Positions 21,533-24,800 of a stretch of 64,000 nt of DNA are shown in pieces. The stretch covers positions 1-64,000 of the IMG/VR virus record IMGVR_UViG_3300035698_010610; one strand, 5' to 3'. How positions within the stretch are numbered: position 1 is the stretch's first letter; every line of letters starts with the position of its first letter. A program made the position numbers and the translations under genes. The notes under the pieces were generated by a model that did no database searches, had not been told where the DNA came from, and saw only the letters and a list, made by a program, of their open reading frames with translations. The stretch comes from a virus.

Positions 21533-21829
21533 CTACCCGACAGCACCATCGGGGAGCTTCACGGCAACCGGGCCGCTGGTTTCCACGCTGAGGTATTCCT
21601 CAAAGACTTCATCAGCCATGATTGCAACGAAGGACAGCGGGTCTGTCTTGTGGTCCTCTGGGATCACTGACGACACGGCTGCCGACACAACAGGCGTCCC
21701 TTGCAGCGCGTCTGCGATGGCCTCGAAATGGGCAATGACACCCGCCTCCCCAGACAGCACTCCGTCAACAAACTCCACCGTCGTCGGAGTCAAGCCTCGC
21801 CGCCAGATGCCGGTGATTAGGATTCTCAT
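21533..21829 (-). CDS. small acidic protein coupled to the MuF fusion (candidate immunity protein)
   Basis: ATGA overlap with the MuF stop; 98 aa; role inferred from position. Confidence 0.45.
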   Translation of the reverse strand: MRILITGIWRRGLTPTTVEFVDGVLSGEAGVIAHFEAIADALQGTPVVSAAVSSVIPEDHKTDPLSFVAIMADEVFEEYLSVETSGPVAVKLPDGAVG

Positions 21830-24800
21830 AATGCCAACAGCACCCCCAGGGCGAAGTTTGTGTAATCGCTGTCTTTCCAATACTTCGCAAACTTCCCGCC
21901 GCCGAAAAACGACTCCATTGCCATCGACATGATTTCGGTGCTTCCCGACGAGTAGGTCTTGCCGCAGTATTTGTCGGGGAACTTACCGTCCTTGTATTTC
22001 TCGCCGTCGTTCCACGGAAGGTCTTTCGTTGATTGCCCCTGCGTCCTCCGCTGAACGAATCTATTCTCTGCTGTCCGCAGCCGCATTCGCCCGCCGTTGG
22101 CTTTGAGGTTCCTTGCATGCCAGTGCGCCATTTCATGCGACGCTTCGTTGACGGCTCGCTTCGGCGTGGCTTTCCTGCCCAGGTAAATGTCGTTAGTAGA
22201 GTACGAAAAGTACGCACGGTCGTCCATCGCGGCTTCGATATAGTAGCTTTCACCCCCCTCCCATTCCTTGTGGTACCACTGTGTCGGATAGTCCTGCCTT
22301 GCCTTGTCTACTCCAGCCTTGATTCCCTTCGCCTTCCTTGACTTGGCACCACCGAAACTATCCCATGAAAACGCATACTCGTGCCCTGTGTCCTTCACGC
22401 CGAAGTCCCGACATTCAGCCATCACCTTCCGGAGCTTGTCTGCTTTCTCGGCAGGAGTGTTGCCGGTGTTTTCTATCGCCTTCCGTACCTGAGTAAGCTC
22501 CCTCCTGATTTCTTTCACTTGCGCCGCTTCGGAGGCAGACATCTCTTCAATCGGACGCCGCTTGCCAATAGCGAGCAAATCGTCGACTAGCGACTCTGCT
22601 TGCTGTTTGAGAACTTTTTCAGCAGCCTGACCCTCTCTGAATGCGGCGTCTAAGTGCTCCCGCACTATGTTGCCCACAGCCCTGATGTCATCTTCTGTTT
22701 CAATGCCCGCAGCAACTTTGCGGCGAACTTCCTGGCCAATTGCCTGCACGGGGTCGTTCATGTCGACCGTTTTGCGGCCCGTGAACAAATAGTCGTCCGG
22801 CACAACAACGTCCTGAATCGCGTCCGTTGCCCCGGCAGGTACACTTGCCACTTCAGCTTCGGCTCCACCTGTTGCCAATTGGCCAGCCGTTGGCAGCGGC
22901 AATTGCACAAGCTGCGGAGGCGGTGCCACGCTGTCCGGCCATCCGCCATACGCTCCCGGCTCGGATTGATCGAACTCGGTCGGGACGGACAATGTCGTGC
23001 AGCGGCAGTTTGACAAACACGCACCGTTCGCTATAATGAGGCCGGTTTCAGATTGGAGGTCATAAACCCAATGCGAAAACTCAAACTCCCGAATGTGCAA
23101 CACCTCATCAAGATGCACAAGGCCGGAAGAACTGTCCAGCAAATCGCTAACGACATCGGCTGCTCGGTCTCGCCAATCTATCGGGCTTTCTTGGCTGGAG
23201 GCTACCGCCCCCCTCGTCGTATATCCTTGAACGTCAATGCCCTTGCTGCTGACTACACAGGAGGCATGTCGCTCAAATCCCTGGCCAGCAAGCATGGCGT
23301 TGCCCGCAATGTAATTGCCCTTCGCCTCCAAGAAGCTGGCGTCGAACTCCGAGGCAGGAGCGATGCGGAGCGGCTGAAATGGGTGACACTCAAAACCAGT
23401 CGGGCTGCCGTTATCAGGCAATGCGGCCCCGCCTGGAAAGCCGCCGTTGCCGATGTGCCCGACATCCCGATTGATGCGTGCGTCGAATCTCACCCCGGCT
23501 ACAAACGGGCTGCGGCTGGCAAGTTCGCGAGGCAGTCTGGCATTTACCCGAACGAACAAGCCGTGGCCACGTTCCTGCGGCACAGCGGCACAGACATGCT
23601 GCACCAGTTCCCCGTTGGGCCGTACAATCTCGACTTGGCCCTTGATACCGAATTGATCGCCGTGGAAGTCTGCTGCCTCCCGGCCCACACGTTCAACAAC
23701 AAGCCCGCAGCCCGAACCCGCACGGAAATGCAACGCCTCGAATACATCTTGAATCGCGGCTGGTTCGTCGCGTACCTGATCGGCATAGCTCGCGTCGGCC
23801 GTTACAGGTTCGACCTGTCCGTGATGGGTGGCGACTTGCTCGCCTTGCTGAAGGTCGCCCGCGGCGATAAAACCACGCGAGGTAAGTACGGGGTGGTTTG
23901 GGGTTACGGTGAACCGCCTGCCGCTGCGAAGTATGACTTCAAGGGCCTGCCCTTCGTACCAGGCTTTGGTGCCTGCTACAAATGATCCTCGCACCTTGTT
24001 GCCCGGAAGAATGCAGTGGCATCGCTCCTTCCCTGGCAATGAATGGTGGCCGGGGAACGGTGCAGGAGAAGCACCAACCATGAACACGCCGGTCGGGAAA
24101 TCCTTCGGCACCCGTTTCCCGTGCAGGTCCGCGTGGGACTGGCGGGTATACTGGTCGAACGTCGCCGACCATTCCAGTTGCATCGCAGTCCCGTCGCTGA
24201 CCATCTCCTGATGTTGGACGTGGTGCCCGGAATTCCATGCGCCGCCGCTTTCCGTACGGCCGATGAGTTCCCCTCTGCGGCTGTTGCTATTGAGCCCTAA
24301 CACGCCGTCGGGGTTGCCGTCGCCGATCCGCACGCCCATCTGGTATAGATTCTCACCCTGCGACATTGAGGTGTTGATGGCGGTCGCCAAATTGTTGCGC
24401 GTCGTCATCGACATATCTTGCCAGTACGGCCGGGCCATGATCGTGTTGACCTCAGCCCTGACGGCGGCTTGCGTTTGCGGCGATAGCGTCACCATCAACT
24501 CGTCGATGGGCTTCGCGGCGCGGCGGGGACTCATGCCGAACACGCTGGCGAATATCGCACCATGAACCGCCAAGCCGAGCATGTGCGGGGTCGCAACCCG
24601 GAATAGCTCATCATTCCAGTATTGCGTATCGTAGACCACGTCCACAATGCCGCCGGACGCTGCCGCTCGCTTGAATGCCAGTGACGACGCGGACTTGTGG
24701 AACACGTTGCCGAGACGCACAAGGATTTCCGGACGCATGGCCTCGAACATCGCGGCAATGTCTACTGCCATGTCCCGCTCAAGGCTGTCGAGCTTGCGGA

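Follow-up and report, generated by a model that had tools for sequence, protein, structure and literature searches.

We analyzed a 64,000-nucleotide (nt) stretch of viral DNA (IMG/VR virus record IMGVR_UViG_3300035698_010610, positions 1 to 64,000; hereafter the window), in which a gene for a phage portal-MuF fusion protein is interrupted by an intein. The strand opposite the intein codes for a second protein, a nuclease, whose gene lies wholly within the intein. We find support for this plus-strand open reading frame (ORF) as a real, selected and folded gene with helix-turn-helix (HTH) domains and a Vsr-like nuclease core. The element is probably a mobile intein residing in the N|CRC site of the MuF domain, with a homing endonuclease (HEN) that is a separate antisense gene equipped with internal start signals. 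Coordinates of all features are collected in Table 1.

The nuclease ORF runs from an ATG at 23071 to a stop codon at 23983-23985 (310 amino acids [aa] if counted from a TTG at 23053), and its frame shares codon boundaries with that of the intein. The stop, TGA, is the antisense of the TCA codon for intein Ser11. A first-pass annotation, made from the sequence alone, had proposed a 304-aa antisense ORF in codon register with two HTHs and a Vsr-like nuclease, and the Pfam HTH matches, the AlphaFold2 (AF2) model and structural comparison with VIA all bear this out. The model, built from 65 sequences, has a mean predicted local distance difference test score (pLDDT) of 91.1 and comprises two HTH units, helices and an alpha/beta core. 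Helices of the first HTH span residues 9-17, 22-29 and 33-42, and the region of the second (model residues 49-93) matches resolvase and repressor HTHs at Z 6-7 in VIA. For the nuclease core, the best structural matches are the catalytic domain of I-Bth0305I (3r3p_A; Z 9.9, 96 residues aligned, root mean square deviation [rmsd] 3.5) and E. coli Vsr (1cw0_A; Z 9.5), alongside the DUF559-like 3hrl (Z 8.6). A PDB sequence-profile search with the nuclease also found 3hrl (E 6.9e-5) and did not recover 3r3p; Foldseek with the whole nuclease model returned no match at E ≤0.001. Taylor et al. are said to have reported in 2011 that I-Bth0305I is an EDxHD homing endonuclease encoded within an intron; its carrier is a group I intron, whereas that of the window nuclease is an intein.

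At the level of single sequences, the window antisense frame matches the MTES_1575 restriction endonuclease family at E 1.7e-4 (22 bits against a Pfam cut-off of 38.2). At E ≤0.01, matches to MTES_1575 occur in 39 and matches to DUF559 in 16 of the 65 antisense products of relatives; HTH_58 is found in 38 of them. Residues Q179, D188 and E199 are invariant in the 65 sequences and R222 is conserved in at least 90%; D188 and E199 are the putative catalytic residues. Note that the window nuclease has an extra N-terminal HTH (23071-23280). Many relatives align to it only from about residue 47-54 onward, and the alignment columns of residues 62 and 65 are filled in 19 of 66 rows.

The layout recurs throughout a family. 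Relatives of the antisense protein comprised 12 in the protein collection (26-45% identity), 375 in IMG/VR, from which we took the best 80, and 3 from the genome collection, for 83 loci in total. We used 66 non-redundant elements (65 with an intact nuclease) for alignments and selection counts, and located intein ends with hidden Markov models (HMMs) built from clear cases. The strand opposite the nuclease match is stop-free in 83/83 loci over 759-4995 nt, including loci at 37-45% GC, and both strands are open and in register 0 in 84/84 (the 83 loci plus the window). Both intein ends were found in 81 of the 84; contig ends interrupt the other three. Across these 84 rows, the HMM-defined insertion site is nearly always N|CRC of the MuF domain. 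Antisense stops in homologues, which the first-pass annotation had named as a way to refute its proposal, are confined to a single element, as 65 of the 66 nuclease ORFs are intact. The exception, L044 (3513-4487), has nuclease-frame stops at codons 61, 152 and 309 of 325 with the intein frame open, and looks like a decaying endonuclease within a still-translatable intein. In eight further loci (L051-L053, L058, L061, L020, L010 and L056) the C-extein does not begin with CRC or CKC (the starts include CAYNAG, CKTPLV, CSPIYS, CRTT and CRRGQ), and there the intein-nuclease module may occupy other sites or host proteins.

Comparison of relatives shows that a putative sigma-70-type -35/-10 pair, a Shine-Dalgarno (SD) motif and an ATG are held at silent positions of the intein codons. 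TTGACA-N16-TATAAT and GGAGGT-N10-ATG had been read from the antisense of the splicing-motif codons, and both are present exactly there, the latter as GGAGGT at 23055-60 followed by 10 nt and the ATG. A promoter scan scored the window site 12/12. No other exact TTGACA-N15-19-TATAAT occurs in the 64 kb, and 100 shuffles of the sequence produced none. The nuclease starts at the 21st codon from the intein C-terminal end, antisense to the block F His (CAT), in 50 of 65 elements, and the aligned plus strand of the family reads GTTgct...tGCtAnnAT...TGGAGgTCgTAnACATG. In the window, the -10 sits at the family-conserved offset; with TCA as the codon for Ser335, the -35 is shifted inward by one base.

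Our null model resampled synonymous codons for 22 intein residues according to the extein codon usage of each locus, in 2000 runs over 50 canonical elements. Four signals exceeded it in a way that no run (0/2000) reached: TAnnnT at offset 25, where the family -10 occupies offsets 25-30 (28/50 observed versus 2.8 expected); the extended -10 TG just upstream (27/50 versus 5.8); ATG at the block F His (44/50 versus 14.8); and GGAG (31/50 versus 11.9). The bias persists in a stricter set of 39 elements (<45% identity), with TAnnnT peaking at offset 25 only, and 35 of 37 use CTC for the Leu of D-L-Q. The proposal that a putative promoter and ribosome-binding site are encoded in intein codons is supported, as relatives keep these signals beyond the synonymous null. 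Two near-consensus promoters in block G codons occur within the first 75 nt of the element, read on the nuclease strand, in phages that are both cultivable. Aaphi23 (L095) has TTGCTT, 17 nt and the extended -10 TGTTATAAT, and E. coli phage fEg-Eco06 (L096) has TTGACT ... TGTATAAT; each precedes GGAGG or GAGG and then ATG.

The costs that had been ascribed to the promoter fared differently. The Ser-Asn end of the intein had been explained as one such cost, which we can discard, as the family as a whole favors Ser at the penultimate position (51 of 66 elements, with His in 8 and other residues in 7), where its codon is mostly AGC (29) and TCA in just 6. The other supposed cost, a rare ATA codon, does fit; ATA accounts for 3 of 49 Ile codons in the exteins. 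Independent or early transcription of the nuclease, also suggested at first pass, may follow from these sequence signals.

Mobility is indicated by intein-less relatives. A single N-extein query found no viral relatives; MuF relatives were found via a four-sequence extein alignment. Of the nine MuF loci closest to the window N-extein, four bear the intein and were already among the relatives, and five are intein-less and contiguous across N|CRC (...ERCN|CRC..., ...ERAH|CRC... and similar). In the mechanism we propose, the internal promoter would let host RNA polymerase transcribe the nuclease in the direction opposite to that of the late structural operon. The enzyme would bind intein-less MuF alleles in a co-infecting phage or prophage and cut them at or near N|CRC, and repair would then copy the intein and nuclease gene jointly. 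On the sense strand, the mirror-image sequence would be translated as a mostly disordered loop, and the intein would afterwards splice itself out of MuF.

Several observations weigh against this interpretation. The -35 is weakly held, with TTG in 34/50 elements versus 23.9 expected and 8/2000 runs reaching that count. Most homologues have the promoter-like and ribosome-site motifs, but TAnnnT at the conserved offset is missing in 22/50 canonical elements, so the promoter is not universal, and an SD-like motif before the chosen start is missing in 13/65. As the relatives lack phylogenetic independence, the counts from resampling should not be taken as true probabilities. In the suggested HMM search of both strands, HTH_7 and HTH_58 score above their curated Pfam cut-offs, but the window scores for Intein_splicing and MTES_1575 are below theirs. 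Our survey covers the best 80 of 375 viral relatives, which leaves room for free-standing members of the nuclease family. Finally, we infer all of the transcription, cleavage and splicing steps.

An alternative is a real nuclease that is expressed by a route other than the block G promoter, or that no longer homes and has another role, such as phage-phage exclusion, antisense-RNA regulation of MuF or DNA binding only. The missing -10 in those 22 relatives would suit this explanation. So would the absence of any joint skipping the intein in four salt-lake metagenome DNA runs, where the window DNA is unchanged with zero differences, although these are contigs, which lose rare variants. Furthermore, most VSR-like cases appear to be vertically inherited according to the text of a recent preprint (bioRxiv 10.1101/2025.01.02.630785). 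We nevertheless consider it unlikely. All listed or annotated genes adjoining the intein are on the other strand, so a plus-strand transcript needs a local promoter, and the silent-site bias toward the -10, extended TG, GGAG and ATG is both strong and position-specific. Homing is likewise favored by the invariant core residues D188 and E199 and by the intein-less alleles among close relatives.

The insert has the features of a class 1 intein with a Hint fold, and splicing is predicted from its sequence and model. The first-pass annotation had described a 336-aa MuF intein with blocks A, B, F and G, and every sequence detail that it gave, including the coordinates 23008-24015, is correct. The translation begins CILPGN and ends GACLSN, with TVTPNHPVLT and SHWVYDLQ in between. 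It is preceded by ...KERCH and followed by CRC, so that the C-terminal junction reads LSN|CRC. The Pfam match of the window sense frame to Intein_splicing (E 3.7e-5, 24 bits versus a cut-off of 35.8) covers the ends only. In the AF2 model, pLDDT is 96-98 at residues 1-60 and 94-98 at 301-336, and the C-terminal part is confident from about 281 to 336. VIA aligned this model with 65 chains at Z ≥8, and its matches include the bifunctional intein TliVMA (7qss). The Mtu RecA mini-intein 2in0 matched with Z 12.9 and an rmsd of 1.4 over 105 residues. The intein middle had been said to contain no recognizable domain. This fits residues 137-277, with pLDDT <50 at 137-159, 165-169, 172-242 and 251-277, but not residues ~85-135, which are confidently modeled (pLDDT 83-95 at 81-130) and under selection in the intein frame too.

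That the insert is instead an in-frame insertion retained in mature MuF is very improbable. Its penultimate residue is Ser instead of His and its Pfam intein score lies below the cut-off, as such an insertion might show, but a penultimate His is common and not obligatory in class 1 inteins, and Intein_splicing matches 66/66 non-redundant sense translations of relatives. Cys1, the block B His41 and the terminal Asn336 are invariant across the 66 relatives, in which T38 is conserved in at least 90%. Wherever a C-terminal junction was located (84 rows), Cys occupies the +1 position; 83 of these junctions are real, and the one assigned to L001, whose junction lies off the contig, is spurious. The Hint fold recovered by VIA also speaks for splicing, as does the position of the insert within a conserved NCRC motif that is contiguous in intein-less relatives. 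In the host ORF of L001, the C-terminal intein HMM also has a weak second match at about residue 506, upstream of the MuF intein (24.8 bits, ...SLYTGN|TTG), which may mark another intein or have arisen by chance. Two other intein architectures were also considered and rejected. A canonical bifunctional intein with an in-frame endonuclease finds no match, as 0/66 sense translations of relatives hit a nuclease family in Pfam, LAGLIDADG and HNH included. A split intein or fractured gene is excluded by a sense frame that is continuous in 84/84.

Comparison of the 66 elements shows that each frame is under purifying selection where its own protein is folded. The register is such that the wobble base of either frame is the first base of the other, and the most variable codon position flips twice along the element. 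For each region, we counted codon pairs that keep one protein while altering the other, and expressed them as a log2 ratio with confidence interval (CI). Changes preserving the intein frame dominate at intein residues 1-64 (log2 -1.75, CI -2.33 to -1.19) and 296-336 (log2 -1.01, CI -1.75 to -0.26), with the last 22 codons at -2.4 to -2.6. Changes preserving the nuclease frame dominate at nuclease residues 38-179 (log2 +1.90, CI 1.50 to 2.27). Selection acting on the sense frame alone, which the first-pass annotation had named as refuting its proposal, is therefore not what we see. Consistent with two coding strands, the codons TTA, CTA and TCA are absent from the overlap of 65 elements in both the nuclease frame (0 seen versus ~232 expected) and the intein frame (0 versus 258), where expectations derive from extein codon usage. 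The only TCA codons in the window intein are those of residue 11 (the nuclease stop) and residue 335 (part of the -35).

These data dispose of the weakest alternative, that the plus-strand ORF is a non-functional shadow of composition and intein-frame conservation: long antisense frames are common at the ~59% GC of the window and an in-register frame requires avoidance of just three codons, but the idea is refuted in practice, and in our view next to impossible, given seven loci at ≤45% GC that stay open (P of zero forbidden codons 1e-7 to 1e-3 each), HTH_7 and HTH_58 matches over Pfam cut-offs, an AF2 model of mean pLDDT 91, nuclease-frame selection over ~140 codons, and invariant Ala and Gly residues with free wobble positions in that stretch.

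Between these regions, at nuclease residues ~190-231, neither frame is ahead and the ratio is near 0 (windows -0.8 to +0.5). This segment contains IAVEV (23656-23670), the reverse complement of intein DFHGD (residues 116-120), which the first-pass annotation had taken for a mere shadow of the nuclease motif. We find instead that both frames are under selection over these nuclease residues. The use of ATC/GTC at nuclease positions 196 and 200 keeps intein D120 (58/66) and D116 (54/66), and that of GAA/AAA at position 224, a charge change, keeps intein F92 (61/66). The codon for nuclease A197 is GCC in 62/66, whereas the invariant A121 and A148, opposite the disordered part of the intein, use all four codons. 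DFHGD and [IV]AVE[IV] are thus both selected, and these codon choices agree with the confident intein model at residues 81-130. The combined claim, that ~40-50 codons encode folded, selected parts of two proteins and that blocks F and G form a portable promoter-SD-ATG cassette, is one on which we remain evenly divided.

Table 1. Features of the intein-bearing gene and of the antisense nuclease gene, in window coordinates.
Feature	Coordinates	Strand	Basis or remarks
Promoter-like site: TTGACA (23010-15), 16 nt, TATAAT (23032-37)	23010-23037	plus	Lies in block G, within codons L-S-N and L-I-I
Shine-Dalgarno GGAGG (23055-59) and start ATG (23071-73)	23055-23073	plus	Antisense to D-L-Q and His in block F
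Antisense nuclease gene, 304 aa + stop, wholly within the intein, in codon register with it	23071-23985	plus	ORF list, translation
First HTH, nuclease residues 8-39	23092-23187	plus	Pfam HTH_7, 25.2 bits versus cut-off 23.8
Second HTH, nuclease residues 56-101	23236-23373	plus	Pfam HTH_58, 27.2 bits versus cut-off 23.8
Vsr / I-Bth0305I-like nuclease core, residues 159-265	23545-23865	plus	VIA, PDB profile, family Pfam, invariant residues
Host gene, intein-bearing portal-MuF fusion protein, 1533 aa	21826-26427	minus	ORF list and translation, Pfam
Class 1 intein, 336 aa, Cys1 ... Ser-Asn, then +1 Cys of CRC	23008-24015	minus	Translation, HMM-defined ends
Intein N-terminal splicing part, residues 1-64, blocks A and B (TVTPNHPVLT)	23824-24015	minus	pLDDT, invariance, selection
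Intein residues ~85-135 with F92 and DFHGD 116-120, antisense to the nuclease catalytic core	23611-23763	minus	Selected in both frames
Intein residues 137-277, low-confidence linker, shadow of the nuclease gene	23185-23607	minus	pLDDT, selection
Intein C-terminal splicing part, residues 296-336, blocks F (SHWVYDLQ) and G (GLIIANGACLSN)	23008-23130	minus	pLDDT, selection

The host ORF matches Phage_portal at residues 141-450 (E 2.4e-37) and Phage_Mu_F at residues 679-776 (E 2.5e-8). The ~390 C-terminal residues that follow the intein (21826-23007) have no Pfam match.

The same arrangement is present in sequenced phages. A tblastn search with the antisense protein matched 43 GenBank phage records, among them 15 from Gordonia, 15 from Pseudomonas and 4 from Escherichia phages, and each match lies beneath a head, minor-capsid or hypothetical coding sequence (CDS), except in two unannotated records. 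Seven GenBank phage loci were examined, from Gordonia, Pseudomonas, Aggregatibacter, E. coli, Cronobacter, Idiomarinaceae and Vibrio. All seven have the same layout, with the annotated CDS on the opposite strand. They also agree in intein ends, register and upstream signals, and none of the seven has the nuclease gene annotated. In two E. coli phage records the product name is 'minor head protein with inserted intein'. The full antisense layout is seen in Gordonia phage Angelicage (L084; MH651166.1 9253-12504), and tblastn locates a Vsr-like antisense ORF in the MuF genes of Angelicage, Affeca, Keitabear and Sedona. These four phages are named in the same preprint (bioRxiv 10.1101/2025.01.02.630785), in a sentence on endonuclease VII-like inteins. 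They may have two inteins each, or the wording of that sentence may be ambiguous.

The first-pass annotation knew of no description of this architecture. The antisense-HEN intein layout is real, but it was described in 2025. According to the text of that preprint, Gosselin, Arsenault and Gogarten describe 63 non-canonical inteins of actinophages, among which are full inteins that have VSR-like HENs in the anti-sense orientation (bioRxiv 10.1101/2025.01.02.630785). Their hosts include minor capsid (MuF-type, IPR006528) proteins, HHpred links the HEN to I-Bth0305I (3R3P), and earlier antisense LAGLIDADG cases are credited there to Gorbalenya 1998 and Gogarten 2002. As portrayed in the preprint, those inteins share with ours a complete VSR-like HEN ORF on the opposite strand inside the intein, MuF-type hosts, and an in-frame middle without recognizable structure, although in our case residues 81-130 are confidently modeled. 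The Gordonia phages that we matched also fall within the host range given in that text. Measured against the same text, the window element differs in its source (a salt-lake phage metagenome), its portal-MuF fusion host and its extra N-terminal HTH, and its ORF in starting on the block F His, ending at intein residue 11 and having ~40 codons under dual selection. The terms promoter, ribosome site and start codon do not occur in the main text of the preprint. The embedded start signals and the doubly selected segment are beyond anything that we found in print.

Three other systems are close in some respects. As described in the text of a second preprint, by Phillips, DeSimone and Gogarten, a cyanobacterial dnaX intein has an out-of-frame LAGLIDADG homing endonuclease, with frame-dependent purifying selection and a putative SD (bioRxiv 10.64898/2026.09.14.751524). 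That text thus reports an endonuclease in a non-intein frame, selection that depends on frame and a putative SD before the endonuclease start, all of which it has in common with our family. In contrast to that case (LAGLIDADG, +2 frame, other host gene and organisms), the window ORF lies on the reverse strand, with its codons exactly in register with those of the intein. In the fractured genes of Dassa et al. 2009 (PMC2677866), as presented in the text, a Vsr-like free-standing HEN lies between split-intein halves. This resembles our case in combining a Vsr-like free-standing HEN with an intein, in phage-like metagenomic DNA, with overlap of intein coding. Their host gene is given as two trans-splicing ORFs, whereas our family has a continuous sense frame and an antisense nuclease.

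The third comparison is with canonical bifunctional inteins such as PI-SceI, which has an in-frame endonuclease domain. Like these, the window family has the Hint fold and endonuclease-related sequence between the N- and C-terminal splicing parts; unlike them, it has no in-frame nuclease domain in any of the 66 relatives.

In this family, a selfish element packs two genes, and the expression signals of one of them, into a single DNA stretch. Only TTA, CTA and TCA need to be avoided in an in-register antisense frame, which accounts for how an intein could be invaded by a free-standing nuclease gene while the host protein stayed intact. For research on overlapping genes, this dual constraint at the level of codons offers a clean example from nature. 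Because the hidden gene is unannotated in all seven GenBank loci inspected, phage annotation misses a whole family of nucleases. Furthermore, the layout is found in phages of E. coli, Pseudomonas, Aggregatibacter and Gordonia that can be cultured, so tests of the promoter, homing and splicing are feasible. If blocks F and G do act as a portable cassette, a nuclease that has homed would bring with it expression driven by the host polymerase, independent of and convergent with the late host gene, and the antisense RNA might time or damp MuF expression.

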